This document shows positions 4,822 through 51,450 of a DNA stretch of 64,000 nucleotides, in pieces. Below the pieces are notes generated by a model. That model worked only from the letters and a program-made list of their open reading frames with translations. It made no database searches and was not told where the DNA came from. A program made the translations under genes and the position numbers. Position 1 is the first letter of the stretch, and each line of letters begins with the position of its first letter. Source of the DNA: Massalongia carnosa (lineage: Eukaryota). The stretch is taken from the NCBI GenBank assembly GCA_965645245.1, contig OZ287077.1, forward strand, positions 1,612,001 to 1,676,000, given 5' to 3'.

Positions 4822-6332
4822 CATTAATTCGGCAAGATGTACGTCTATAAAGTTCGTGTAACTATCAACAAGATGATTTCTCCGCGCTATTTCTAATAAC
4901 CTTGGAATTGATGCTTAACTGAGTTAGATTGTTTGGAAATACAAACGTCTTCCGTCTATCTACCTAGTTGATGCTTAACATTGCCATCCTTGGGTCGAAA
5001 ACCGAACGGGAAGCGGTCGCTGGAAACTCTTGGCACGGAATTGTGATCATGGGTTTTACTCTGGGCAACACATGGATGTTTCGTCAGTCTATCTGTGAGC
5101 AATAGGATATTAAAGGCGAGGGATTTTCAGAAAAGAAAGCTACAATGTTCCCGTCCCCTGTGTTCTTGTATACTTCTTTGGCCACTCTTCATAAGGCTAA
5201 GTCATAAAAAAAAAACACATTCTCCTTTTTCCATAATACGAGCTTCCTGTTTGTCCTTTTTGTAGCCTTTTGTGTTATAAATGTCAGTTTTCTTCCAGCG
5301 GAGTACCTAGATCTTGATCCTCTTTCAGACTCTGGTTCCGCTCAGTATCAAGCCACAAACACGGATTTCCTCTCATTCATCGTGCTCGGCCAACCTTCAC
5401 CGAACATCGATCAATCTCCAGGGCCGGACGCATATAACGATTTATCCCTCTTCGACGGCACTCCATCCACCAGTTCCGGGCAACAGCTAGTTTCAAATCC
5501 GAGCTTGGGCGAACCTGTGTTTTCGAACCTCGATCAACCGTTGGACTCAAGCTCTGTCCAAATTTCCTCACCGAGCTTGTAGACCTAAACGATAACTTGC
5601 AAGATACAAGTCTCAATTCCCCTTATGACGTTTCTTTAAGCAACCGAAAATCCTGTAAGGTGCTTTCCGACCCCTCTCGGGTAATCCACTCCCTTCAGAA
5701 ACGCCCCGGTTGGCTTTACACCCGATACCAAGCCTATGCAATGCCCTGTCCGAAATGAGGATGAGGGCGAAGAGGCTCCCACAACTCCGCAGCCAGGACC
5801 GTTAATTCCTCAATGTGGTAGCCTTACGGCTGTCTGCTGTACCAGTAGGATTGTAATACCGATAAAAAAACAAAACTAGTCGATATCATGAGGATATCAC
5901 AAACTATCAATTATGTACGCCACTCGCCTGTCTTTACGCTATTGCAAGCTTATTTGGATACAGGCACGCGGTCGTCGAAAAAAAAACGCAACGTGCAAGC
6001 GAGAATAACTACCTCACCAAAACACATCAAAATTCATTCCTATTTCTTACCTTTTCATCTATTCATCAATCATCATGCCTCCTACTCGTGACACAATTCA
6101 TTACGATACATTTGCTAGAGCTAAAATTCAGGATGTTTATCAATGAAATGAAAGTCGAAATTTCTGAACGTACAACGCAACGCACGCTCAAAGCTGCTTT
6201 GAATTATGAGAAATGTCTGATCTGTGTCAAAGGATGACTGACAGACTCATTCATGAACAGACGAGTGAAATGCGCTTCTTTGATGTATAATAGATAATCA
6301 AAGCCTGAAGACTGATATCGCACTTCGAATAT

Positions 6333-8796: not shown

Positions 8797-9246
8797 TCAT
8801 CGCCTGACTTATCTTCTATTGAGAACTGCTGGCTTCTCATAAAACAGCACGTACGGAAGTATCCTCATTGAAATAATGCCTCATTGAAAGCGTTGATTCG
8901 TGAGGGGTGGGTCAGTGTCAGTCAGGAATTTATCAATAAACGGGTGCTTGATATGCCTAGAAGGCTTCAGGAGGTAATAGATGCAGAGGATGCGATGACT
9001 GATAATTAGTTGCAAATTTCAGATAGATAATGTAAGGGAACGGATAACAGGACACCACTTTGGTTAGATAAACACCACCTCCGGTTAGGTAAACACCGCT
9101 AGCCCAGGTAGGGTAGATTCCTCGGCCCCGTCCGCCTCTTCCCCTTTTAGGTCTAGCGGTTGAAACTCCCACATTCTACCTGCACCTCATCCTTGCACTC
9201 ATATTTCACATTTGATCTGCAGGCACCCTGCCGCCGCCACGTCGTC

Positions 9247-11387
9247 ATGCCGCTTCGACCTCCCGAAGATAGTCAATCCTTTGCCTCACTAGAAGACCTG
9301 TTGCTTAGAGTCAATGAGCATGCCGCCCCCGAAGGCTACGCCGTGGTGCTTCTTCGAACCAAGAAAACCAAGCTGGGAATGATAAATAAAGCTTGGTTAA
9401 AATGCGACCGAGGTGGAAAAGTCAGAGAACCGCAGGGTCAGGATCGTCGGCACACCAGCAGTCGACTAATTGCTTGTCCATTTGCCCTGACAGCCAAAAT
9501 GGACGACGAGGTGTGGTTTTTGGAGGTGGTAAATGGGACACACAATCATCCGTCCAGTCTTGCTGGCTCTCATCCTGCCTTGAGAAAAATCGCTCTGACC
9601 GGTGTAAAGGATGACGTTACCAGACAGTTAACAGTACAAATGTCGGCGTCAAAGGTTTTGTCTAGTCTGCGTGTTCCCGATGTGAATGCAGATCTCAGTC
9701 CTCATGATCCCAATGCCGAGATCATTGTGAATCCGATGTTTAAACCTCGGGACATCTACAACTTAAAGGCGCAGATGAGACGTGATGTCTTGGGACCATT
9801 GACTCCTATTCAGGCATTGATTCGTGAGTTTGACGAAAAGGATTGGGTGTACAACTTTCAACAAGACATTCAGCAGCAGATTACGCATCTCTTCTTCATC
9901 AAGGGCAGTTCCCAAACTCTTCTGATAGATAATCATGAAGTTCTCATTATGGATTGCACGTACAAGACCAATCGATACAAAATGCCTCTTCTCGTCATCA
10001 GCGGACAAACCGCGCTACATACTACCTTTTATGTCGCCTTTTGCTTTCTGATCACGGAGACAGCAGAGGACTACATCTGGGCTTTACAGCAATTGAAGGA
10101 GGTGTATTCTCGATTGGAACTTCCTGATTCGATTATTCTCGTGTCCGACATGGAGAAAGGATTAATGTTGGCATCTTCCATAGTCTTTCCAAATATCAAT
10201 CATTTGCTATGCATCTGGCACATCAATCAGAATGTGTTGACAAAGTGCAAAAATCTTTCGACAATGAGGAATGGAAGATCTTTTTGTCAGATTGGAAATC
10301 AGTGATCTATGCAGCAACCGAGCCTCAATTTTGGAAGCTATGGGAGCAGTTTTCTGCTACCTATATGACTTCTCATGAAGATTGTATTCGATATTTGAAG
10401 TCCACCTACATTGATAATCATCGCGATCGCTTCGTGGCATGCTACACCAACAAGGTGCTGCATTTTGAGATAACGGTAACGTCGCGAGGGGAAGGCGCAC
10501 ATTCAGTATTAAAACGTCAATTAGGATCATCGACCGGAGATTTGAAGCTGGTAGTTGACGGCATTAATCTGCTACTAACAAATCAGTATCATGATCATCT
10601 GATTGCTTTTGAAGAAGCCAGAACACGTTTTCCACTTCATCTTCGCAAAGTTATCTTTCAGCAACTGAGAGCATTTATCAGTCCCTATGCCCTGAAAAAG
10701 ATTCTACACCAATACGAGTTATTAACAGGAAGACCGACTGTTATTCCAGCTTGTACCAACGTCTTCACTACCATCACCAGCTTGCCTTGTAGTCATCTGA
10801 TTCAGCAACGATTATTCGAGAATGAAGGAAGTCTGAAATTGGAAGATGTGCACCCGCATTGGAAGTAGGTTATTGTCATCTGATCGATGGTCAGCGATCA
10901 GCTACTAACAACAGTTCAAGGTTGGAAAAAGCGCGCCCCTCCGATTGCTTTGATTAATCCTCTTCTTCTAGTGAGGGAACCGGAGATAGCCCGACCTCGT
11001 GGTCGCCCTCAGGGAGCGGAAAACAGACGAGCGGAGGCATTGGACAATTCCACTCATCGATTACCATCTCAATTCGAACAGGTTGAAATGGAAACAGCTG
11101 ATGCAATAGCTCCGGAGGTGGAACGAGCTATTCATCGAGCCAATACTACACCAGGCAGGGTAGGACGTCGGGGGCGAGGGCGAGGGCGAGGACGAGGGGA
11201 GGGAGAGGAGGGGGAGGGGGGATTGGTGAAAGAGCTGAGACAAACACAAGGACTGGCCGAGCTAGGGCTAGGGCTAGTCGAGGCAGAGCTGGTCGAGGAA
11301 GGGGAGACGGGATTGGCGGGGATGCAGCAGATGGAATTGGCGGGGATGCAGCGAATGCGGCTCCAATCAACTGATTTGCATTACTAA
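9247..11387 (+). pseudogene. MULE transposase (FAR1-like DNA-binding domain + MULE DDE domain), frameshifted
   Basis: Motifs CDRGG...CPF...HNH, LIMDCTYKTNRYKMPL, SDME, LLCIWHI, TSRGEGAHSVLK and LPCSH. Frameshift in an A-run near 10250, a probable intron starting gtaggt at about 10865, and RGRP/RGRGRG repeats at the C-terminus. The 3' end is approximate. Confidence 0.88.
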
Positions 11388-11512
11388 GCTTCAAATAAAG
11401 GGTGCGATTCATGAAGACAGTGCCAATCGACAAATCCAATGTCTAGTAATCGATGGTTGAAAGCTGAATTGAATTTTTTCTTGAGGTGTCAATGTTGGGA
11501 TGTGGACTGCTA

Positions 11513-11576
11513 TTCGTGCCCCACACTTTCGCTCGGTCGATAAGCGAGTCGACCGAGCGAAAGTGTGGGGCACGAA
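11513..11576. mobile_element. 64-bp micro-MITE (perfect 28-bp TIRs, 8-nt spacer, TA duplication)
   Basis: TA|ttcgtgccccacactttcgctcggtcga-taagcgag-tcgaccgagcgaaagtgtggggcacgaa|TA. Removing it and the pogo element restores gctagacctaaaagggg, the mirror of the left MULE TIR. Confidence 0.8.
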
Positions 11577-12610
11577 TAGACCTAACGTAACTCACTGGGC
11601 AACGGGACAAACTGGGCAACGGGACTAAGTAATTCCGAAATCATCACTTTTTGACCACTCTAGATGATGAAGCCTTCATCACATACATTTTACATACAAA
11701 TTCAGCTTCAGACGTCACAGTAGATTACATTCATCATTTTGAAACTTTATAATCATGGGTGTAGGTAAAAAAACCACCTCCCACAAGACCTCCATTCCTT
11801 CATGTTTTCACCCCACCTCCACCTATCAACAACGATTACAGTCAGCCTTTTTGGCCTGGAAACAGGCCGATGGAGCTCTTTCCATTACGAAGGCAGCTTT
11901 TCTATATGATGTTTCAAAGTCTACCCTTCATGCCCGCATTCAGGGTCGTCAATCACGATTTACGTCTGATCAAACTAAACAACTGCTGACCCCCGAGGAG
12001 GAAGACGCTTTGAAGAACTGGGGTTTACAACTGTACGCCTGGGGTGGCCTGCTAAAATAGCTCAGCTACGTCAGATGGCCATAGAATTCCTACGAGCAAG
12101 GGGGAATCATACTGTGCTAGGAGTCAATTGGCAACAGTATTTTTTACATCGTCATCCCGATCTGCAGGCTCAATACAGTCGCACACTAGATCAAGAACGA
12201 TTATTCGCTGAGAATGAAGAGATATTTCAGCACTGGTTTGACCTTTTCCTCTCCATGAAAGAAAAGCACGGAATTCTTGATGAAGACATCTACAACATGG
12301 ACGAAAAGGGATTCATGATGGGGGTAGCTGCTAGTGCTAAAGTAGTAATTTCTAAGCACGAAAAGCAAGCCTTTTCAGCACAGTCAGGTAATCGAGAATG
12401 GGTGTCATTGATCGAGTCCATTTGTACTACCGGTCGAAGTTTACCTCTTTTCGTCATCTTCAAAGGAGTCAACAAGCAAAAGGCCTGGTACGATGCACTG
12501 GAGGACATTGACACTGAAATAGCTACCAGCGAAAACGGATGGACAGACAATGAACTAGGTCTTGATTGGTTGAAAAAGTGTTTTGAACCTGCTACTGCAA
12601 AATATCTACA

Positions 12611-13048
12611 TGTCAAGGACTGGGTTGGGAATTGAACTAATGTTCCTAGGAATTGGATTGGATGATCAAGATGTCTTTATTAATGAGGCTATAGCTAGGA
12701 GGTGGTTTGCTATACAAGACGTCGGACGAGGAGTCAACTATCTACAGGATATGTCCTCTTTTTATACCTGAGCCAGCCCCTTCTTTCTCATGTTTTACCT
12801 TCACCCTAGATGAGAGATTTTGGTGATGGTGGCGGCGATAAGGTGGAGCGATAAGTGGGCCCGTGGATGTGATCGTTCTAGCGATAAGAGGGTATAGTGG
12901 AGTGAGGAGATTGGTGGAGTGGAGTAAGGGATTTATTCAGACTCATACCGAGGATGAATCTGAATAGGCTTTCAGGTGGCTTTTACCTCGATCGCCGCTT
13001 GACGGTTCGGTAATCATTAGGTTTTAACTCAAACTTTATTTCATGACA
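12611..13048. mobile_element. Solo LTR (438 bp) inserted in the pogo transposase
   Basis: Termini tgtca...tgaca with a 5-bp TSD ctaca (12606-12610, 13049-13053). Excision restores aaa tat cta cac ggt gaa (KYLHGE). Confidence 0.88.
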
Positions 13049-13438
13049 CTACACGGTGAATATCGACTTCTTATAGTAGATGGTCATGCTTCCCATATTT
13101 CTACCGAATTCATCAAGTTTTGCAACGAAAAGAGAATCATTCTTTTGTGTCTACCTCCACATACTACCCATATGTTGCAACCTCTGGACGTGAGTGTTTT
13201 TGGGCCCTTATCACGGGAGTACAAAAAACAATTGGAGGTCGTCACCCGATTCAACGTCTGTTCAGTGGACAAGGTGGATTTTCTGAAGATCATTCAAAAA
13301 GCAAGAAAAGAAGCAATCAACACAAAAAACGTGCTGACTGCATGGAGAGCAACCGGATTAGTACCATACAATCCGTCATCAGTTCTTCAAAAACTCACTA
13401 ATAAACAATCGGTGTTGCGAAAGACTGATAGCATCATC

Positions 13439-13500
13439 ACCACCACTACCACCACCACCACCACCACCACCACCACCACCACTACTACTACCACCACCAC
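13439..13500 (+). repeat. (ACC/ACT)n microsatellite encoding poly-Thr inside the pogo transposase
   Basis: About 21 consecutive Thr codons in ORF 13043-14146. Confidence 0.9.
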
Positions 13501-14963
13501 GAATATCACCTCCTCTCATCCTAACACTCCGACAACCCTTCAAAACTCTCACGAAATTGAAAAGACACCTGCAAATATCGATCAAATAAATCAACTGATT
13601 CGTCGAATTCGAAATGATGAAGAATCAGACTCGACTCCCGTTCGAGCGCTAAATAAATTGATAAAAGGCGCTAAATATGCCTTCGCAGACTCTACCTTGC
13701 TACGTATCACCAACAACGAGCTTCTTCAGGCCAATGTACGGCGCCATCATCGAGCCAATCGTAGCGGGGCTCACTATGGAGGAAAGGCTCGAGTTCTAAG
13801 CCTTGAAGACGTTCAACAAAGCCAGCAATGGGCCAAAGATAAACAAAAGGTGAAAGACGCAAAAAAGAAGGCCGCTCAGCTAAAACGAGCTGAGCAGGAC
13901 CTTATCAAAACTTTCAGGGAAATGTGTCGATTTGGACCTGATTTACTAGGACAAACGTCTACTGCATCTTCGACGAAAAGTCCTCAGAAAAGTCCTCAGA
14001 AAGCACCTGATAGTTCACAAAGTAAGCCTATTTGTTCTTTTCAAAGACGATTACTACCTCCTCCCGTGCTTCAACCAATGACAGAAGAGGTAGAGGGGGT
14101 GGAGGAGGTGAAGGTAAGTGGGAGGTGGAGGTGGTGGAGGAGGTGAAGAAGGTTCAAACTACCAGACGGGGTCGTATTGTACGTCTACCACGTAAAATGT
14201 GATTAAGTTGCATGCAGACAAAATATCAATTTCACGTCTAATAGACATTGAAGCCGAATTTGTAGTTAGTCCCGTTGCCCAGTTTGTCCCGTTGCCCAGT
14301 TTGTCCCGTTGCCCAGTGAGTTACGTTAAAAGGGGGAGAAGGCGGACGGGGCCGAGGAATCTACCCTACCTGGGCTAGCGGTGTTTACCTAACCGAAGGT
14401 GGTGTTTATCTAACCGGAGGTGGTGTTTATCTAACCAAAGTGGTGTCCTGTTATCCGTTCCCTAATGTAATGAAATAGGTGAAAAAATGGAGAATTAGGG
14501 GTGTGTTTTGGTGGGGTATTCTCGCTTGCACGTAGCGGTTTTTTTTGACGACCGCGTGACAGGGTTAAGAACTCAAAATTAGAATCAATCTTCTGCTGCG
14601 GCTCATATGATGTATGTTTCTTTTCTTCCTTCGGACGAAGCTGCAAAACAAATACAAGCTCATTGGAATGTTAGCTGGTGTGCAACGATGATTCAGGCTG
14701 CCACAGAGGAGGGTCTTGACTGCGATACCCACTTGGTAAACTGAAGCTTCACAACATTCAGATCATACGCGTATTTGGAAGTGAAATAGCTTGAGGACAA
14801 TATATGGTAAGCACTAATGGATAGGTAGCACGATTAGTGGTTTTCTTAAACTCACCTAATCAGATTAGATTAGATGTCAAAACCTTGGCATTGTTTATGT
14901 TACGTGACATGTGCGTGACAAAACCTCACAAAAAATAATCATATTCAAGAGCACATCCAAAAG

Positions 14964-17747
14964 ATGTCTAACATCCTCTCTAAAAAGCGGAAGCAATTGT
15001 CATCGATTTCTAATCCTCCATCTGGATCTCACCGCACTCCAAAGCGTGCTAAGACATCCGCAGCTAGGACCATTCTAGCCCAAGCGTCAGACCAGGCTCT
15101 GAACCAAAATGGAGATCTTGACGTGGCTGCGTTCGTCAAGGCTCGGGAATTCGAGATCAAGGCCATGGAGGCAAGTATGGGCTCCTCCAAGAAGTCCTTG
15201 TCTACACGGGCCTTTCAGCAAGTACCAAAAGATCTTAGGAGAAGAACTGCTAGTCATAATGTGAAGCGTGTACCGAAGAGGTTGAGGGCGAGGGCAGCGA
15301 AGGAGGTAAGTGGCAAATAAAAGCATTCTGGGGTGGGAAAAGTCTGAGGATAATTGTAAAACTAAATTTTTATTGCAAGGGCAAAGTTGAAGGATGACAA
15401 TACTACTACCAAGACGTCTCGTCGACACACACTTACCCCCCACATGCGGCTGCGTACAGAAACAGCCAAAAAATTACAAAAGCTAGGATCTCGTGTCAAA
15501 GCTAAGCGTGCTAAACATGCTAAACCTACGCTTGGAGAAGAAGATGCTGCAAATACCAATACTCTTCCTCAAGTCCCTCGAGCAAAAAGGAACGTCCTAA
15601 ACGAATCTCCCAAGCCCTCTTCTAAGTTTCGCAAACGTCAGCTACACAAATCCTGGCTCCCGACTCATCTATATCATGCAAAAAGAGCACATATTACGCC
15701 GCCGTCCGAACCATTGTGGCGCTTTGCAATCCCGTTAACACCAACCGAGAAATGTTACCGGACAACACACCGCGCCTCCTCCTCAAGAGGCTGTTTGGCG
15801 TGGGATACAAGCTATATGAGTACACTTAGGCTGGAAGGGGTAGAGGCTAGTCTGTTGGGGTTGCTACGTGGGCTAGGCGTGGAAGACATTAAGTTGGCGG
15901 AGAAAATTGGGGCTAAATGGAGAAGAGGCACTCGTGGATGGGCCGGATGGGTTAGAGAGCAGGATGGAGAAAAGAGACTCATGACCAGGACCAACATTGT
16001 ATGGCGTGTATGTGAAGCTGAATATTCGGGGAGTATCGAGCCTAGTGTCGTGGAGAAACAGACGAAAAGGCAGATTTTCCTTCGAATTCACCCGGCCGCC
16101 TTCCTGCAGGTCTGGAAGGAGGTTCTCAAACTTGGTCAATTGCAGCGACCGCCGGTAATGGTTGAAGATTTACGTTTCGAGATTGGCAGCATTGAGATCA
16201 CTGGGCCCGGATCCACGGAAGCTTTGATCAGCGTATTACAACCAGCTGCAGATGTTGAGACCGCATCACCAGAAAACATCTCCGCCAAACTATGGCCATT
16301 CCTAGTGACAGTGACGAACCCGGCCTCCTTACCTCATAATGCTCTCCTGGCATTTGAGATAAGTGACCCACGGTTGCATCATCCACCACAAACGGTGATA
16401 CAACCGAACCCATCAAACTTGGATGATAAGCTTCTAGAGCTTTTATCCAACTGGCCGCCAGATAAGACTCAAAGCTCCCCCACCATTTTCGACCGTACTG
16501 CCCGTTTTGCTGCTTGCAGGCTCCTTCCCAGCCAAAAGGCGATCCACAGGCGTAAAGGCGCGGCATTGCCAGGCACATATCCGAACGCACTTCCCGGAGA
16601 CCCGCGCATACCGATCTTGCTTATAGCATCACGCTCAGGGTCCGACGGGGCCCATGGGTCCTGGACACTCCTTCTCCCGTGGAAATGTGTTCTTCCTGTG
16701 TGGTACTCGTTGATGCACTACCCTCTCTCCTCGGGGGGAAACCCGCGCTTCGGTGGCCTGCAAGAAAAGAGGCAGGTTGCGTTTGAACAGGGGGGTTCAT
16801 GGTTTCCGGGGGATTATCCGGGAACAAACGCTGGCTGGGAGTGGGAAATGCTGGAACGGGCGAAGAGGAAAGCGCAATGGGAGAAAAGGCCTAAAGGGAA
16901 GAGAGTTGAATGGGAGAGCGTGGATCTCGGGGATGGGAAGAAGGGCGAGATTGGTATGGGCTGGGCATGTGATTGGGAAAGACTCTTTCAGGGCCAAGAA
17001 TCCTCAAGCAGCAGCATAGCAGAACCTGCACATGCAAAAGCCTGCCTATCTGAACCATCAGCTTCCGGCCCAACAGTACAAAAATCTACGGATTCTAGCC
17101 CACCGAACCCCCCGAAACCGCCACCGTTCAATATTCACCATATCCTCACCCCTGTAGATCGCAAAGTCCCCTCCGACCCGCCACCCACGGCCCTAACAAC
17201 AATTTCCCTTTCCCTTCTCGCTCGCGGATCCCCAAGCCCCTGCGCTCGCATCTACCGCCTCCCCACCACCAATCCCACCCTCCGTCAGAAGTGGCTCGCG
17301 CTCACCGGCACTACCAAAAGCACCCAGCAAAAACCTCATCCTCTCAAGAACCCCCCCCGGACTTCATTTCCCAAAAACGCGCCCCCACACGAAATCCAGC
17401 AGCACATCGCCGCCTCGCTACTCGCTCCGCCCTCGGCAACCGCAGCTAAAACGACGGCTCCGAAACCGCTGCGGGCTGGCGACGCAGCGTATCCGGTTGT
17501 GCCGGGGGAAGAGGACTTGATTGGCTTCGTCACGACGGGAAACTTCAACCTGGGGGAGGGCAAGGCGAGCGCGATTGGATGTGTGGTTTTAGCAAGGATT
17601 TTGGGGTTTGGCCGGGCGTCAGCAGAAGGAAATGGAAATGGAAATGGAGATGGAGCTGGAAGGAAGGAAGGCCAGGGGAGGGTTTGCATTGTCCGGGACG
17701 CGGGGCAGGCTTTGGGGAGGTTAGCCCGGTGGGAGTTTGTTGGCTGA
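14964..17747 (+). CDS. POP1: RNase P/MRP protein subunit POP1
   Basis: Exon 1 is 14964-15305, intron 15306-15386, exon 2 15387-17747. POP1 N-terminal motifs FVKAREFEI, AFQQVPKDLRRRTASHNVKRVP, WLPTHLYHAKR and WDTSY. POPLD-like region WTLLLPW...FEQGGSWFPGDYPGT and C-terminal LIGFVTTGNFNLGEG. Confidence 0.95.
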
Positions 17748-25972: not shown

Positions 25973-26724
25973 TGAGGGGAAGGAAGCCGAAAAGGAGATG
26001 GAGACAGGGATTAGGGGGGAATGATGACCGAGAAGGAATTTGAACGAAGAGCTTGGAGGGGATAGGTCAGATGAAGATGGAGATGATGATTCATCTCTAT
26101 GGCTTATGAGGTTGGATACGGTGAAGAAAGGGCATAAAAGAATGGCTGAGGTACCCCTTCCATCCCTTTCCTTCCTCCCTTTCCTCCCTCCCTCTCCTCC
26201 TTTCTTCCTCTCTCCTCTTCTCCTTTGCCCATCTTTCGCTTCACTTCGCACACAGCGAGCGACAGCGACCCCGGCTCCATGTTCAACAATCAATCAATCA
26301 GCCAATGTTCCTTCCCTGCTGCCTCTCCATCTCCATCTCATCTCTCTTTCTTCCTCTCTCTTTCTCTCTCCTCCACCCTTTTCTCTCTCCTTCCCCCCCT
26401 TACCTATTACCACCCTATTCAGTTCATTCTACCAAGCCCTTCCCCTCATCCTCTCAACCTAATTCAACTCATTCTATTCATCTCATTCATAAACACCCTC
26501 GCCCCGCGAAAGAAAACAAAAAGATTAAAAAGAAAAGTGGGGCGATAAATAAAATGAACGCCTCATTGTTTTTCTATCCTTGCTCTCTTTCAGAATTTGG
26601 GGCAGGAGGAGGAGGAAGAGGAGAGAGGAAGATAAAGAGGGGATGAGATGGGATCAGAGCAGATCAAATGGGATGGAATGGGATGTGATGGAGTCCTCTT
26701 TTGATTGTACGGGAAGTGAAGAGA

Positions 26725-43187: not shown

Positions 43188-46100
43188 TGATGATGATGAT
43201 TATTCTTATTCCGATGTGGTACCGGCCGAAGGCCGGCCCATGCGGGCGAGTCTATCTAGTTTTAATAGTACATGAAAACTTTTTGAGGAAGAAAAACCAT
43301 GCAATCCTGTGTCCGGCCGAGGACCCTCCAGTTCCCAGCCGTGTGCTCCATGAAAAAACCTTTGACCTAAGACAAGTATGAAAAATGAAAAAAAGCATGC
43401 CTACTGTTAGCAGTATAGATGCTATGCTGTCAGCGAAAATTGTGACAACAAACCTGTCTTCATTAGCCACTTTGTGACTAATTTCATTGCTTTAGATGAC
43501 TCAGTGATTAATCGATAGTTGTTTGTGCCTATCGTATTTAGCAGAGTTTTTCTGTTGTCGTTGAGTTTGCAAAACATGATCACATGTTTTGCAGTCTGTT
43601 TGTGCCAGCCGTATGAGCAGTTCGGGGACGAGACGTCTGGGACTCGGTGTCTATGTAGGAAGGCGGCTAGGCCTATCTTTTCTGAGCGTATCTGAATGGC
43701 TAGCGCGCTCTCCGCTTTGGCTAGAGTTTCGTGCAATTTGATGCGTTTTTTGGAGAGTGAACCTGATTGTGCCGGGGTGGGAACGGGTGTGCGTTCCTGA
43801 TATGATCTCCACGAGGCCTGCCATGCAACTGTGTGTCGTTTTTTTGATTTGAGCAGTTATTTTGTTATGAGCGGCGCGTGCCTCCCCTATTTCTCGGGCG
43901 AGATTCGGGGGGGATTCGGCCCATGGTGGATTTGGTGTCGGTGTTGGAGGGTTATGTGCCTCCGATGTGATTCTCTTGGCCCAGGCGTATTTCAGCATTC
44001 CTGGAGTGATGACTGGGGCCCTCTTGCGTCCTGCCCGACCTCGAAGTTTATTGGCTATTTTGTTGCATGCATTTGTAATGAAACTCTTTTGGCCATTTCG
44101 ACACAGGCGTTGTCTGGTCTGGGCCTGTAGTTGATCTAAATGTATGTCAATTGAGGTATAAATGTCTCTGCTTCTAGTACAGCTATGGGCGTTGCTTTGA
44201 AGGCTCCGGCTATGTTTCTTAGACATTTGTTTTGTATGACAGCCAGTTTGTTTGAGATGACGTTTGATTTTTGAATTTCTTTTGGCATGTGCCAAATGGT
44301 GGAGCCGTACGTCATGGCCGGCCGGACTATGGCGGTGTAAACCTGGCGTGCCTTTAGAAGAGTGGCGCCCCACGTGGAGGTGGATATTTTTGTCAATGCC
44401 CTGGATTGTTTTGTCATTTTTTCCTGGATTTTCCTTGTGTGAGCACCCCATTTCAATTTTGAATCGATTTAAAGTCCTAGAATTCTGATGTCTGTCTTTG
44501 GTTTTATGATGTTATTTCCTATTTGAATAACAGTGAACATGTTGCATTTCTTCGGATTTCTTGACAGATGTATCAATTCGTATTTCTTCGAAGCGAAGAC
44601 TGAACCATGTCGACTTGCCCATTTTTCACATTTTTTGTGAATTACCTCTAGCGTCTTGTAATTTTCTTCGGTGCTTTTTCCGTATGCTAGCACATTGATG
44701 TCATCTACGAAGCCTAGAGCACTCGTGTTGCTGCCTGGTCTTTCACATATGTCTAGTAGGTCTGCATTGTAGAACAGATAAAGAATAGGAGAAATGGGGG
44801 AGCCTTGTGGGATTCCGGTTTTTACATCGAATATGCCCGTGCCTCGGCTGTGAATCGCCAGGGTAGTGGTTCTTTCATTCAAAAAACTGTTCACCCAGTC
44901 AGTGATCCATTTTGGGATTTTCCTTTTGCGAAGATTGTGAATCAGTCTTCGATGTGTCACTGTGTCATAGGCTCCTGCTACGTCCATGCTCAATAATGTG
45001 GCTACTTTGTCTGTGCCTTGGCCCCACACTGTATGAATTTGTTCAGTCAACAATTCTAGTGCAGATTCGGTTGATCTTCCTCGTCTGGCGCCCATCTGGG
45101 TGTCGGGCAGGAGTCGGTGGGTTTCCGCTAGATGGGTTATTTTTTGTGACATGATGGATTCCATTACTTTTCCAAGCGTGTTTAGGAGTGCTATGGGTCG
45201 ATAGGCGTTCGGGGCCGAATAGTCATCCTTGCCTGTTTTCTTGAGCGTGATTGTGTTGGCGGTTTTGAATGCACGAGGATGATATGCTTGTTCTACACAT
45301 GCTTGAAACAGTGGGGTGAGTAATTCGACTAGCTTTTCCGAGCATGCCTTTACAATTCTGTTGGCTATTCCGTCCGGACCCGGGGCCGTATCGGGCTTGA
45401 GTCGGCGTATGGCTTCCATTACCTCTAGTTTGGTTATGATCATTAGACATTGTGGCGGGCTGGGGTAAAATGAACCCTCTATGTCGCTGAGGTCGGCCGG
45501 AGGGGCGGGTGGAAAGAATTTCTGTTTTAGCATGTCCGATTTCTCCTCGAACGTCTCTGCTACTTGGTCGTCTCGAACGAGATTGGGCATTTTGGGAATT
45601 TCTCTTGTCTGGTCAATTTGTCTTTCGCCCATTTAGCTAGTCGCCCGAGACCAGTAGGCGATTCGGTGGCTTTTTCTATTTCCTTGCGGAACGACAGTCT
45701 TTTAGCCTTTTGAATGATTTTTTATTTTCTATGATTAGATTTTATGTATGTTATCCAATCAGAAATATCTCTAGAATTAGACCAGACACGTCTGAGCCTA
45801 CGAGTTTCTTTCGTGATCACACTGCATTCATCATTCCAAAAAGGTTTGGCGTACTTACTGGGTCTAGCCCAAGGTACAGAGGTTTCTATCACTTCTTGAA
45901 GAAATTTTTGAATTGACACGGTGTAAGCATCGATTTCGGCGGGGGATCGGGGGGTCTTCGGGGGGGGCGCCCTCTTTTCCGCTTCTCTCAGTTTTCTCAT
46001 GTTCGTCAGTTTCCAGGCCCTGCGTTCTCTGATTGTTTGAACCTCACTGTTCAGCGCAATTCGGGTGGAGATCGGAATGTGATCGGACGACTGATTGAGT

Positions 46101-48251
46101 TCCGGTCTTGACATGCAATGTTCTAGTCTATCCGTTAATTCTTCTGACATGAATATAAGATCGATTGTGCTAGACGATTGTCTAGCCTCCCATGTAATGG
46201 TGCCTTTTGGAAGTGTTAGTGATAGATTTGCCTCTTCAATTATGTTCAGTAATTGTTCCGACTCCGCATGTTGAGTAGGCCTCGACGAATGATTCCACAA
46301 TGGATGATGTAGGTTGAAGTCGCCCAGTAAAATTTGTTTTGTCTCTGCAATTAATTGGCGTTTTACTGTTGCTAGCGTGGACGGACTGTCTATAGAAGAA
46401 TAGGAAATGGGAGAGGGATTATACAATTGTGGATGTGGATCACGTCTGATGTGTTTCCAATTTTCATTCGAATTTTTAGGGTGCACATGTCGGCCGACGG
46501 AAACTCTACTTCCCAGCTATCAGGGTCAATAGTATCATTTATGTAGAAACACACTCTGGTGTCTCCATTTAGGCGATATAATAAATGAAACCCACTTTGA
46601 TGAGAGCTTAACGTGGTAGGAATAGATGGATTGCGCCAGGGTTCCTGAATTGCGATAATGTCATAGTCTTGAGTGTTCGGATCGGCTAAGAGGGGTAGCA
46701 TTGTACTCACTCGTCATTTCTGACATTGTACTGCAATATGGAGAGATATTTCGTGTCCCTCATAGGATGTCCATTGATTCGGCCTGGGAGGTCGAGGGGT
46801 CGTTGGTGGTGTTGTTTGCTCTGATTATCGCCGGGGCAGTAGATACAGCTCGGGGTCTGAGTGGGGGTCTACCTACAACTGGTTTTGCAAGGGCCTTTAT
46901 CATGTTTTCTGGATTCATGATGCCCGTGTCAGCCCAGGATGTTCCCGTTCGTGGGGGATTCGGGGGGGTATTGGAGGGGGGTGCGGTTTTCCTCTTTTTG
47001 CTGTTTGTGCTGCCAAGGACCGGGTTGATGTTTTCGCTCTGGAACCTGAACGGGGCCGGTACGGGGGCGACTACTGGGTAGAATGGGACCCGTTTTTGCA
47101 TGGCCCTCTCTGCTTTGCGTTTTTCGACTTTCCTGATTTCGCAGGATGTTGACCAGGCTTCGTGTCCCTTTTCACTGCATGCAGCACATCTTCGATATCT
47201 ACCTGTTGTTTCCATGTTGCATTCGGTGCTAGGGTGAGCCCCAGCACAGTGACCGCAGGCGGTGGGGTTGGGATATGATCGACCTATATGACCATATTTG
47301 TGACAATTAAAACATTGCGTCATGGTGCATCCCTTTGTGAATCTTTCATAGTCTTTGATTTCATAGTCGATTATGAGACCCTCGGCTATAACCCGATTGG
47401 CCGTTGCGGCGGTGGCGACTTCCATATGTAGCGTGGAGAACGCCTTCTCTTCCCTTATAGCCCTGGTGGACCAGGCTATCTGCAGGTCCGGGTGCAGGCG
47501 TGCGTTAGCGGTCTGCAGGTACCCTATGGCCTGCGATTGGTTGGCGGTTTTGATGTGTTCCATCTTGACACCATTTACTCTTGACCGAGTATGTCCGTGT
47601 CTTAATCGCCGCTGAGTCGGCTATTTTTCGGGTCCATTCCGGCTTTTCTTGTAGAGTCTTTTTGACTTCTAGTGATTCAGTGTGAATTTTGAGATCTCCG
47701 CTGATGAGTCGCGATACTCCCCGAATCCCCTCCGTTTCTGCTTGTAGTGTCTCCACGAGATCTTTTGTGGGCATGTTCTTTATTTTTTCCTTGTCGCTTG
47801 CGCTGGAAATGACTACGGTCATTGCTCTGGCCTGACGAACTTCTCGTGGTGAGGGTTCGGTTTGTTTTGAAGAAGTGATTGGCTTGGTGCGGCGGGGAAT
47901 CGGGGGGGCCTCGGAGGCTTGACCTCTGGTGGCGGCTGCGGAATAGCTGTTTGTGGTTGTTGTGGCTGTCTTAGCACTTTCGATACGGGCTAGACTTCTT
48001 TGTATTTCAGTCAGGGTGTCGTGAATGGGCTTCGGTATGTTTTCGTTGTCGTTGTCGATGCTTCTCTGATTATCGAGAAAATTTTTCACCTCCTCTAGAA
48101 TCCCTGTTCCCTCCGGCTCCCCTCCGTCTCCTATGCCTATCAGATAGTCATCTATCTTGTACAGCAGTTGATCTCTCTGCTCCGCGTGCGCGATCACGAA
48201 CGTGTTTTCGAGTTGAATGTTCATCGCGTCCACTGCCGAGATTCGCATCAA
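43188..48251 (-). mobile_element. Near full-length Tad1-like LINE, copy 3 (gag + APE-RT), frameshifted
   Basis: ORF1 48251-46760 with CCHC knuckles (CFNCHKYGH, CGHCAGAHPSTEC, CAACSEKGH). ORF2 46763-43422 with AP endonuclease motifs (LQYNV, IAIQEPW, GDFNLHH, TIDLIF, SDHIP), RT motifs (APGPDGI, YRPIALL, DVAGAYD, PQGSPISP, FVDD) and a terminal knuckle. (ATC)n tail at 43188-43200. No TSD found, so the 5' boundary is approximate. Confidence 0.93.
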
Positions 48252-49809
48252 GAATTGTGTCTACTATGCAAATTGTCATCAAAGCTGCTGGGGTAGGTTT
48301 TAAAATTGTTCAATTATGACTAGATCCACACTGCCGTCTTTGGTGTTATACTCGCTGGTTGCGTTTTGTATTTGAAGGAAGGGAAGTACTTGAACCTGTA
48401 TAATATTTTTGATTTGCTTTGGTGTAGTGTGATATTGGTCCAATGGAGAGAAAGGAGGATTTGCGCGATGATGCGGTAGAATTTTATTGTTGATATTGAG
48501 TGGCTTCAAAGCCCGCTTGGTTGATTCCTGTTTGCTCTTTTGCTTATATGTTGTTTTGTGACCTTAGGTCTTTGGCTAGTTACCTTAATGAGGGAAGGAA
48601 TCTTTTTCTGATGGATGTTTGTGGTTGAAAATAGTAGGCATAGTAGAGTAGGGGAAGTTAGATGGTTTACTGCTTTGCTGTTGGGTAATAGGTAGGTAGG
48701 TAGACGAAGCATGCTGTCACAACCGATACTGAAAAACTGACCAATGCTAGCTGTTTTTGTGAGCCAGGGATATTCTTGGCTGATCAATTGGAAAGGCAGA
48801 AGTATATGGGTTACCTTAGGCGGGGGGGGTATAAAGAGGGAAGGAGACGGATGGAGGTGGGAAGGACGAAAGAAGAGGGATGAGGGGAGTGGTAGGAGTA
48901 TTGCTAAGATAAGGACTGCGACAAAGATGTTTGCTTCTTGAACAGTTCTTCTGCAATCTGTGCTTTCATTGTCTTTTCATAATTAGAAACTTTGGGCAGG
49001 GTTATCTAAGTATCACAACTAATGAGAAGGATGAAGAGATTTAAAGGGACACGAATTGTCGAACATTCAGTGAATATCTACCTAGTTTTCTGAACCAGAG
49101 AACCTCGCTGAGCGTCGCTGTTGCTTTCTCTGTCTTGGCCGTTTCCCATTTTTACGAGAGAGTATCTGAGAATCATGCTGTCCGTATTGAGCATCAACTG
49201 CATAGAGTATTCCAATTCATATTGACCGATAATTTTTCATATCTCCTTACCAACAATTTAAGAGGCATTAATAAACCTTATTTTAGGTGAGAGGCTGTGA
49301 GGAAGGAGTTTCATAATTGAGGGAAAGCTCCTAGTTCTCTGAAGGTTTTGGTTGATATTTGAACTGAGAGTTGTTTCATAGAGTTGTTTCATAGAATAAA
49401 GGGATGAACTTGTTGTGGTTGGATAGCTGGACCGAATTTGGGGGAATTGGTGTGAGAGGGATTTTCTGATTGGAGAAAGGGTTGGTGCAAATTTTGGGGG
49501 GAGGAGCTGGAAATAGAATTTAGGAGGGTGAGAGGGAGGCAAGAGAGATCGTGGGGGAGCAAAGAGATGAGGGGGTAGATAGGGAGATGGGGTAAGAGGT
49601 AAGGAGGGAAATAAGCTAAACCAATGACTTAGATTTAAGGCTGTTTATATATGAAAAATATGGCAGCAGTAAGAGTAAGGAGTTGGGGCGAAAGTAGAAA
49701 GATGTACGAACCGGGGAAAGCGCAAACTATGGATCTTTGCGATAAACATAGTACATTTTGCGTGAAGAGCTTGCAAGCTCGTTGGAGAGATGATCTTACG
49801 CAATAGTAT

Positions 49810-50397
49810 TATTTTTTTTATTTTTTATTAATTCATTAAGCGTATGCATCCTAAGGATATGACGCTGTGACTGCTATTTATGTACATAAACAACAGTCAG
49901 GAAGTGGAAACCTGGCCCCCAGGGTCAAACCACTCCCTTGTTCCATGTTGAACGCAACGAGACCGTCCTTCTACCACGCGGTGCATACACCCAGATCTTC
50001 AAGCGCTAGGAATCCTATAGACTCGATGAACTAGACAGTGTATTTCCACACGTTCGACGAACGTTCTCTCTCTTTAAACGTTTTGATTCAATGGAGAAAA
50101 GACTGGCCGTGATCGAGGGCAGATCGTGGTGTCGTATAAATGAAGGTGTGTAAGTGTGGCCATTCTAAATGAATGGGCTTTTTCGATGAGGTGAAAGGCT
50201 TCCGCCTGAGGGGTGTGGCCATTCCGAATGAATGGGCTTTGTATGTGTGCCTTCGAGGTGACGAATGATCAGTAGAGACGTTGATCGTTCAAATGGCCAC
50301 CGAGGTGGACTTCCGCGTTGGCGATGATCAGATATTGGCCACCTCCGAGGAGGTGTTGATAGCCTGCACCACGTAGAGGTTTCTGACCCAGCAGGCC
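49810..50397 (-). mobile_element. Non-autonomous non-LTR retroposon (SINE-like, 588 bp) headed by an HDV-like ribozyme
   Basis: 12-bp direct repeat acgcaatagtat at 49798-49809 and 50398-50409. A-rich tail on the minus strand (aattaataaaaaataaaaaaaata). No ORF in the supplied track. Several hairpins have mismatches that are G-U pairs only on the minus strand. Confidence 0.85.
50326..50397 (-). ncRNA. HDV-like self-cleaving ribozyme (nested double pseudoknot)
   Basis: RNA: GGCCUGC UG GGUCAGA A ACC UCUACGU GGU GCAGGCU AU CAA CACCUC CUCG GAGGUG G C CAA UA UCUGAUC. P1 GGCCUGC/GCAGGCU (7 bp, G1-U wobble). P2 GGUCAGA/UCUGAUC. P3 ACC/GGU with a 7-nt L3. P1.1 reduced to one U-A pair. CAA junction, P4 hairpin, and J4/2 GCCAA with the C75-equivalent at 50338. 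Confidence 0.85.
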
Positions 50398-50643
50398 ACG
50401 CAATAGTATAATCACAAGTCTAGGAGTATTAAGTTAAGGTAGGTCGAGTAAAGGAGTGGTGGGGGAAGTTTTGAATCAAGTTGCAAGAAAAGGGGTGCTA
50501 GTAGCTGGAAGAACTTGTTTCCGCTGTGTGAACTATTTTAGGGTTAAACCCTCTTCTTGCTTACCTAATTCTGTCCGCTAACGTTCTCCGCCAACATCAC
50601 ATTGATGATCTTGAAAACCTCCTCCTTCATCGAAATACTGCCT

Positions 50644-50769
50644 GTGAGTTCTTGCCTATCGCCTTCACATCTCAAAGATGCACCGCATCGAAACAGTCTC
50701 TCTCTGATCACATACTGGCGCAATATATACAGCTAACATCTAATTTCGCCGCTCTGTCGACCCTCGTAG
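50644..50769 (+). other. Probable 5'-UTR intron of RPS30
   Basis: Donor gtgagt (50644), branch site gctaac (about 50732) and acceptor tag (50767-50769), ending 63 nt before the RPS30 ATG. Confidence 0.55.
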
Positions 50770-50832
50770 ATTCAAAAACCGAGCATTTCGTTTCGACCCA
50801 AACATCCATCAGAATAAGCATACACCGTTATC

Positions 50833-51450
50833 ATGGGTAAAGTTCACGGCTCGCTCGCGCGTGCTGGGAAGGTTAAGTCGCAAACGCCAAAGGTACGCTA
50901 GATAGCTTTGTTCTTTACTGTCACCGTTACAACCTGCTTTTTTCGTCCAACATCCTGCTACGCTTTTCAAACATCCAGGTGCTGTGGCAAGTTATGAAGA
51001 CGGCGAATTTTCATTAAAAAAATCATGGTTACTACATGAACTTCGTCCATTTCATGTCTAGGCCAATCCTCTAAAGATCCTTAATTGAAGGGAAAGTGAT
51101 GACCCTACTAATCTAATCCTCTCTCTCTTTGTAGGTTGAGCCCCAAGAGAAGAAAAAAACCCCGAAAGGGCGTGCCAAGAAGAGAATCACATATACGCGT
51201 CGATTTGTAAACGTAACGATGACGGGCGGGAAGCGAAAGGTGAGTGATCGATCTTTGGAATTTCGGTGTTGTTCCTTTTTCTCGTCAAACCCCCCACACC
51301 TTGATTTTGACATCGTCAATGGGAGCTGTCTTGATAATGGAGACTATATTCCTCAGTCCTATGTAGACAAAGTACTGGAAACACAATAGGCGAGACTTAA
51401 ACTGCTGACAAGAAATTCGTATCTAGATGAACCCCAACCCTACCGCCTAG
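50833..51450 (+). CDS. RPS30: 40S ribosomal protein S30 (eS30)
   Basis: Exons 50833-50892, 51135-51239 and 51427-51450 give [62 protein letters not shown]. Missed by the ORF track because of introns. Confidence 0.98.

Follow-up and report, generated by a model that had tools for sequence, protein, structure and literature searches.

Results

An element inserted on the minus strand

The stretch of DNA analysed here, which we call the window, comprises 64,000 nucleotides (64 kb) of contig OZ287077.1 of Massalongia carnosa (GenBank assembly GCA_965645245.1, positions 1,612,001 to 1,676,000), and our subject is a short non-coding element on its minus strand that begins with a predicted self-cleaving ribozyme of the hepatitis delta virus (HDV) type. 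The 12-mer ACGCAATAGTAT has exactly two exact copies in the window (49798-49809 and 50398-50409), and 588 bases (50397-49810) separate them. Read along the minus strand, the order is one flank, ATACTATTGCGT (50409-50398), the 588-base element, ATACTATTGCGT again (49809-49798) and the other flank. The G at 50397, which is the minus-strand base adjoining the upstream copy of the duplication, is also G1 of the ribozyme. None of the open reading frames (ORFs) overlapping the element is longer than 55 amino acids, and blastn finds no second copy of the element within the window. A 28-nucleotide (nt) direct repeat occurs twice in the body (50154-50181 and 50213-50240), with a hairpin within each unit; other copies of the element have a joint that skips 57 nt at 50133/50191, so the number of these repeats varies. 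An earlier reading made without database searches (the sequence-only reading) had described a 588-bp segment with a perfect 12-bp duplication, an A-rich minus-strand tail and no long ORF, and all of this is as it stated. The coordinates are collected in Table 1.

Filled and empty sites, and a shared first base

Public assemblies were aligned to positions 49000-51200 with matches taken from 80% identity, and the results come from four of 17 listed runs (X1, X4, X5 and X6). The filled site is present in X1, probably the source of the window sequence, where records 1 and 7 span both junctions with 0 differences. The sequence-only reading had asked for an orthologous site that lacks the element and carries the 12-mer only once, and there is one in X4, in record 8 (12,446 nt; a lichen metagenome from a separate study). 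Positions 51200-50398 align at 10160-10962 of that record and 49797-49000 at 10963-11761; 10962 and 10963 being adjacent, the record is without exactly 600 bases, that is, the 588 of the element plus one 12-mer. Its flanks show 8 differences from ours and one 1-base insertion across about 1.6 kb.

The element family is plainly very abundant. The number of contigs aligning was 2,167 in X1, 279 in X4 and 137 in X5, and summed contig depth in X1, which is not equal to copy number, rises from 849-909 in the flanks to between 3x10^5 and 1x10^6 over 49814-50405. Among the matches listed, alignments end loosely at 50397 in 13 contigs of X1, 12 of X4, five of X5 and one of X6. Agreement of the flanks beyond 50397 is low (0.39-0.52), so these are separate loci and insertion is dispersed. 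Lesser classes of loose ends in the same matches lie at 50398 (six in X1, five in X4) and 50394 (four in each); those at 50398 are about as expected from a chance match of one further flank base. In X6, record 24 (7,074 nt, from a different coded organism) holds a full-length copy matching 49809-50397 with 11 differences, flanked on both sides by the 13-letter TCTATTGTGAATA. This copy begins at the same base, has a 13-bp duplication of its own and represents an independent insertion. Two expectations of the sequence-only reading, that other copies would start at the same G in differing flanks and that they would carry distinct target-site duplications, are thereby borne out.

The 3' ends of other copies scatter, with loose ends at 49812, 49814 and 49821 among the matches listed, as expected for A-tails of variable length. 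Positions varying in at least 10% of the depth number 31 in these matches, and all fall within 49926-50314; none of those listed is in 50315-50397 and none is in the last 116 nt. The table of variable positions omits variants near contig ends, and the pattern is only a hint of constraint on both ends of the element. One contig of X1 joins 50397 to 49827, giving a head-to-tail pair in which the A-tail of the first copy is followed directly by G1 of the second.

A DNA transposon of the miniature inverted-repeat type, or the remnant of a segmental duplication, was weighed as an alternative, the window being rich in DNA-transposon remnants (MULE, DDE_1). No terminal inverted repeats were found at the ends of the element, however, and it has an A-rich tail of variable length at one end, the ribozyme at the opposite end, a fixed orientation, and duplications of 12 and 13 bp at two loci. 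We regard such an origin as extremely improbable.

The fold at the 5' end

Starting from G1 at 50397, the helices of an HDV-like ribozyme occur in the order given by the sequence-only reading, and all 23 of the 23 pairs of the class structure described below can form. A 2-nt junction connects P1 to P2 and a single A precedes P3; 3' of P4 come G, C (50338), CAA and UA, followed by the 3' strand of P2 (50332-50326). The best Rfam match is RF02682 (HDV ribozyme from F. prausnitzii), which scores 29.9 bits with an E-value of 0.0047 on 2.2 kb and of 0.14 on the whole window at a permissive threshold. Infernal, which had been proposed as a check, placed this HDV model on exactly 50326-50397(-), though below the Rfam gathering threshold. 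The minimum-energy fold of the 72 nt recovers P1 and P4. In alignment A3 (below) C 50338 falls in the column of the GGCNAA cytosine, which does not vary in any of the 24 rows, and it also aligns with the corresponding consensus column of both RF02682 and RF00094; from established HDV ribozyme chemistry it is predicted to be the catalytic cytosine.

Table 1. Coordinates of the element, its predicted ribozyme and other features of the window
Feature	Position	Strand	Basis or remark
Target-site duplication, upstream copy, ACGCAATAGTAT (+ strand)	50398..50409		Exact repeat; empty site in X4 has one copy
Target-site duplication, downstream copy	49798..49809		Exact repeat of ACGCAATAGTAT
HDV-like ribozyme, 72 nt, predicted	50326..50397	-	Rfam RF02682 match, model R1 match, 23/23 pairs
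P1, 7 bp, G1 (50397)-U (50361) wobble	50397-50391 with 50367-50361	-	7/7 pairs
P2, 7 bp pseudoknot	50388-50382 with 50332-50326	-	7/7 pairs
P3, 3 bp ACC/GGU	50380-50378 with 50370-50368	-	Fits RF02682 consensus
L3, 7-nt loop UCUACGU	50377-50371	-	Fits RF02682 consensus
J1/4, AU	50360-50359	-	
CAA after J1/4	50358-50356	-	
P4, 6 bp, CUCG tetraloop	50355-50350 with 50345-50340	-	All pairs form
Catalytic cytosine, predicted, ribozyme position 60	50338	-	C of GGC before CAA in J4/2
Non-coding body	49831..50325	-	No ORF >55 aa
A-rich 3' tail, 21 nt	49810..49830	-	17 A, two AATAAA motifs
Decayed non-LTR retrotransposon	43200-48976	-	On the element's strand, 0.8 kb downstream
Exo_endo_phos_2 domain of the decayed retrotransposon	45722-46516		Broken frames
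RVT_1 domain of the decayed retrotransposon	44469-45632		Broken frames
MULE transposase remnant	9157-10305	+	
DDE_1 (pogo/Fot1-like) transposase remnant	13028-14146	+	
POP1 (RNase P/MRP subunit)	15366-17747	+	Uninterrupted frame

A covarying class in metagenomes

A descriptor limited to the core (ACCTCTACGTGGT, N9, CAAC, N10-40, GGCNAA) matched at 43 loci in public metagenome contigs. About 15 of these matches were dropped as chance occurrences, inside coding sequence and without P1 pairing. The AU-CAAC junction occurs in 30 matches (24 distinct sequences), most of which form a 7-bp P1 and P2 where expected. A covariance model, R1, was built on P1, P3 and P4 from 11 metagenomic ribozymes, with the window sequence excluded and P2 not modelled. 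On the window, R1 finds 50325-50397(-) with 50.5 bits (E about 2e-9), and its next-best match in the 64 kb scores 15.9 bits.

A model-guided alignment (A3) was made of 24 sequences, and P2 was added to it afterwards as a pseudoknot. Standard pairs fill 93.5% of the paired cells, the corresponding figures being 63.5% for shuffles and no more than about 40% with the partners slid, and both sides change in 18 of the 23 pairs. The covariation score is 0.754 against 0.195, and was reached in 0 of 500 shuffles. Covarying pairs make up six of seven in P1, five of six in P4 and seven of seven in P2, even though P2 lies outside R1; P3 is invariant by construction of the search pattern. This core type is part of a wider, covarying and partly uncharacterised metagenomic class.

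An exact 25-mer of the ribozyme had 0 matches in collections of metagenome, genome and viral contigs. For the core ACCTCTACGTGGT-N7-ATCAAC-N(10-40)-GGCNAA there was likewise no match among 185,579 prokaryote species genomes or in IMG/VR, against the 30 in metagenomes, so its carriers are mostly uncatalogued. No reverse transcriptase was seen beside the metagenomic ribozymes among the 11 ORFs scanned, and no ORF there resembles the window.

Two settings stand out among the metagenomic loci. Full-size HDV-like ribozymes with P4 occur at L002:2982-3062, L014:2991-3066, L031:2991-3066 and 5699-5774, and L037:561-634, each starting on or beside the last base of a tRNA gene. These loci are dense tRNA arrays with 3 to 14 tRNAs apiece, theta-like but not minimal. 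The second setting is a group of AT-rich contigs (L009, L010, L018, L019, L024, L025, L026, L030, L033, L036, L038, L039 and L043), which have a G+C fraction (GC) of 0.24-0.30, look eukaryote-like and encode hAT and Tnp2 domains. In these a ribozyme sharing the core is immediately preceded by a run of A10-13, and homology between contigs spans the 1.1-1.4 kb upstream and stops at the 3' end of the ribozyme. The ribozyme is thus at the end, not the head, of a repeat that measures at least 1.1 kb, and L012 and L040 show the same behaviour.

One could read the 72-nt head as a portable ribozyme module and not as part of the lineage of one element. The core ACC-UCUACGU-GGU-N7-AU-CAAC...GGC-N-AA abuts tRNA 3' ends, closes A-run repeats and heads other bodies in X5, and on such a reading the module would have passed among genetic parasites of very different kinds, possibly from one kingdom to another in the lichen consortium. 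If this were true, the module in tandem copies would define each RNA end of an element that lacks a promoter: for the downstream unit its 5' end, and for the upstream unit its 3' end at the A-run. We consider this idea speculative and unlikely.

Strength of the ribozyme assignment

By itself the 12-bp direct repeat is unremarkable, there being 18 pairs of 12-bp direct repeats 100-2000 bp apart in the window against a shuffle mean of 8.5. What lifts the insertion above chance is that the duplication, the A-rich tail and the first base of the ribozyme coincide; the external evidence settles it, there being an empty site and many copies that share the same terminal base. Several observations weigh against reading the element as a retroposon headed by a ribozyme. 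Both Rfam scores fall under their gathering thresholds (RF02682, 29.9 with a threshold of 44; RF00094, 24.9 with one of 50), so the sequence is assigned to the structural class only and to neither Rfam family. The nested part of the 72 nt is thermodynamically ordinary (z -1.73, with 9 of 200 shuffles as stable). J1/4 reads AU where HDV has GG, which by sequence leaves P1.1, in HDV a helix of two pairs between L3 and J1/4, with at most one A-U pair, and P1.1 is the weak point of the assignment; all 24 sequences of A3 share this AU, by selection, only ATCAAC matches having been retained. An active ribozyme, that of L1Tc, has been described with a single-pair P1.1 (PMC3185411). The R1 score is partly circular, its training set having been fetched with a pattern from the element's own core; core letters score by construction, and therefore only the helices P1, P2 and P4 are independent evidence. 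Finally, a partner long interspersed nuclear element (LINE) was not found. The window's only LINE, the decayed copy in Table 1, was tried for this role and rejected: it shares no sequence with the element, whether head, body or tail (local alignments stay within shuffles), and R1 finds no ribozyme in it.

Some of these points would fit a sequence that resembles a ribozyme by accident, or one that is the inactive remains of a ribozyme, the element starting at this base for unrelated reasons; the scores below gathering, the weak P1.1 and the ordinary nested folding energy are what such an account would draw on. Yet the resemblance would have to begin on the exact base that ends the insertion, form 23 of 23 pairs with all invariant core letters, and reach 50.5 bits under R1 where the next match has 15.9. 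It would also have to leave 0 variable positions in 50315-50397 against 31 in 49926-50314, a comparison that holds among the matches listed and is affected by contig ends. We find a chance origin of the fold very unlikely.

A different alternative is that the 72-nt head is mainly a DNA promoter starting at +1, with the fold secondary or inactive and the 5' end marking initiation. In L1Tc and NARTc the initial 77 nt (Pr77) are reported to act both as a promoter and as a ribozyme (PMC3185411), and the present data do not separate a cleaved from an initiated 5' end. However, four helices and an invariant core that fit a strongly covarying class are features a promoter alone would not need, and we think it unlikely that promoter activity is the main function of the head. 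We hold it to be highly probable that the element is a retroposon and that G1 of an HDV-like fold is its first base.

Type of element and host

The hallmarks of a retroposon are present: a 12-bp and an unrelated 13-bp duplication, an A-rich tail, dispersed copies, an empty site and no ORF for a reverse transcriptase or endonuclease. The copy in the window is best explained as one young, full-length member of a high-copy, insertion-polymorphic, non-autonomous retroposon family of the type without long terminal repeats (non-LTR).

A canonical short interspersed nuclear element (SINE) was considered and set aside, no RNA polymerase III (Pol III) head being seen. ARAGORN reports no tRNA in the element, Rfam gives no match to tRNA, 5S or 7SL at E up to 10, and B-box-like matches are no commoner than chance predicts (140, with 158.5 expected), which agrees with the sequence-only reading that a tRNA, 5S or 7SL head is lacking. 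The element is SINE-like in its life style but is not a canonical SINE. We also rejected a SIDE, one of the short internally deleted elements derived from R2, in view of the dispersed insertion, the single-copy flanks outside ribosomal DNA (rDNA) and the two unrelated duplications.

A fungal host, proposed earlier from the sequence, is likewise favoured here. The window holds a 793-aa uninterrupted POP1 frame whose nearest clusters in a protein atlas are commonest in Ascomycota and Basidiomycota (a lead only), and several of the runs with matching contigs are labelled lichen metagenome. Judged from these data, the host is probably a lichen-forming or lichen-associated fungus.

The neighbouring LINE and other features of the window

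The decayed LINE ends near 43200 in a GC-rich hairpin and a TCA-repeat tail, not in poly(A), and the protein atlas describes it only as 'reverse transcriptase'. The 0.8 kb between it and the element shows the depth of single-copy sequence and also occurs in the record with the empty site.

The question of where the element came from is separate from how it moves. It may have arisen by internal deletion from an autonomous LINE with which it would share its ribozyme head and 3' end, in the way that SIDEs derive from R2 and NARTc from L1Tc, and would then not have been assembled separately as a SINE-like element; this would concern origin only and is compatible with the mechanism proposed below. 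In published cases, ribozyme-headed non-autonomous elements share their head with the parent LINE (PMC6765202, PMC3185411). In X5, which represents another lichen-associated organism, four contigs retain the ribozyme to 50326 and then diverge, the same head being followed by other bodies; these offer a lead to an autonomous partner or to sister families. Against such descent, the one LINE in the window has neither head, body nor tail in common with the element. We regard descent from a LINE as a serious possibility, if one that falls short of probable.

The window is otherwise rich in transposon remnants, those of MULE and DDE_1 transposases being listed in Table 1. A match to the plant microRNA family MIR408 at 25985-26211 (+) was discarded as most likely spurious, with an Rfam score of 28.9 bits against a gathering threshold of 64 and many overlapping ORFs on both strands.

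Discussion

We consider it likely that the element is a ribozyme-processed retroposon mobilised in trans. With no recognisable promoter of its own, it would most likely be transcribed by read-through, within longer RNA polymerase II (Pol II) transcripts that start in neighbouring genes or in an upstream copy. The first 72 nt of the element would then fold as an HDV-like double-pseudoknot ribozyme, and a predicted self-cleavage directly 5' of G1 (50398/50397) would remove all upstream host sequence. HDV-like ribozymes cut 5' of position 1 and stay on the RNA (PMC6765202, PMC3185411); since the ribozyme would cut upstream of itself, it would remain on the transcript. The 3' end would be formed at the A-rich, AATAAA-containing tail. 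A LINE would supply endonuclease and reverse transcriptase in trans for target-primed reverse transcription into a new site, and copying as far as G1 would yield the A-rich tail and a target-site duplication of 12-13 bp. Because copying would reach G1, each new copy would begin with an intact ribozyme. In tandem pairs, such as the one seen in X1, the downstream ribozyme may in addition shorten the upstream unit by cutting immediately behind its A-run.

If this mechanism is correct, it describes a short retroposon that can seemingly do without a Pol III head and without its own promoter. The family is abundant, apparently active in recent times and still insertion-polymorphic, and so offers a living system for study and not a fossil. 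Its ribozyme may provide a compact natural 72-nt HDV-like example with a minimal P1.1 for biochemical comparison. On the practical side, the repeat will fragment assemblies of lichen fungi, having drawn 2,167 contigs in a single run.

Comparison with known systems

Among catalogued sequence models, RF02682 is nearest, and beside it stands the metagenomic class to which the tRNA-abutting ribozymes belong. P3 and L3 (ACC-UCUACGU-GGU), CAAC and GGC-N-AA of the RF02682 consensus all match the element. Its J1/4, however, is AGG where the element has AU, one base shorter, and the score lies below gathering. The theta ribozymes of phages are minimal and have no P4 (PMC10879173), whereas the element has a P4 of 6 bp; they abut tRNA 3' ends, as do metagenomic ribozymes with the element's core. 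In both cases the biological setting is unrelated to the eukaryotic retroposon head described here.

Classical fungal SINEs have tRNA-derived Pol III heads and are short, non-coding, A-tailed and dependent on LINEs, with target-site duplications. In the element, by contrast, a ribozyme occupies the position of the Pol III promoter.

HDV-like ribozymes define the 5' ends of R2 and SIDEs, L1Tc, NARTc, baggins and RTE (PMC6765202, PMC3185411). No description of a fungal retroposon headed by an HDV-like ribozyme was found in the literature, Repbase and Dfam lying outside the search, and HDV-compatible folds in Pr77-like sequences of Penicillium chrysogenum are mentioned as 'laboratory data' in PMC3185411. 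The novelty left open by the sequence-only reading is partial: what appears new is the fungal host, along with the type of core, but the design was already published for NARTc/RIME and R2 SIDEs.

NARTc of Trypanosoma cruzi and RIME of T. brucei are the non-autonomous partners of L1Tc and ingi, and their head is the 77-nt Pr77/L1Tc HDV-like ribozyme. Like the element, they are short, non-coding and dispersed, have target-site duplications and begin with about 75 nt of HDV-like ribozyme that cuts at +1 (PMC3185411). According to the same source, the ribozyme is inherited by each new copy, mobilisation is in trans, and copies are found both in tandem and isolated; in the element one tandem junction was seen. 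They differ in belonging to another kingdom, in having a known parent LINE that carries the same head, and in that promoter activity of their head has been demonstrated. The ribozymes themselves are also unlike, the 3' half of L1Tc, as far as the reverse primers in PMC3185411 reveal it, being without the AU-CAAC junction and having another P4.

The R2 SIDEs of Drosophila are similarly non-coding, with a 5' HDV-like ribozyme, and use LINE proteins in trans (PMC6765202). They are, however, site-specific in 28S rDNA and are cut from a co-transcript with ribosomal RNA (rRNA), whereas the element is dispersed. The closest functional relatives of the element are NARTc and RIME, followed by the R2 SIDEs, and ribozyme-defined processing of retroposon RNA appears to extend from trypanosomatids and animals to fungi.

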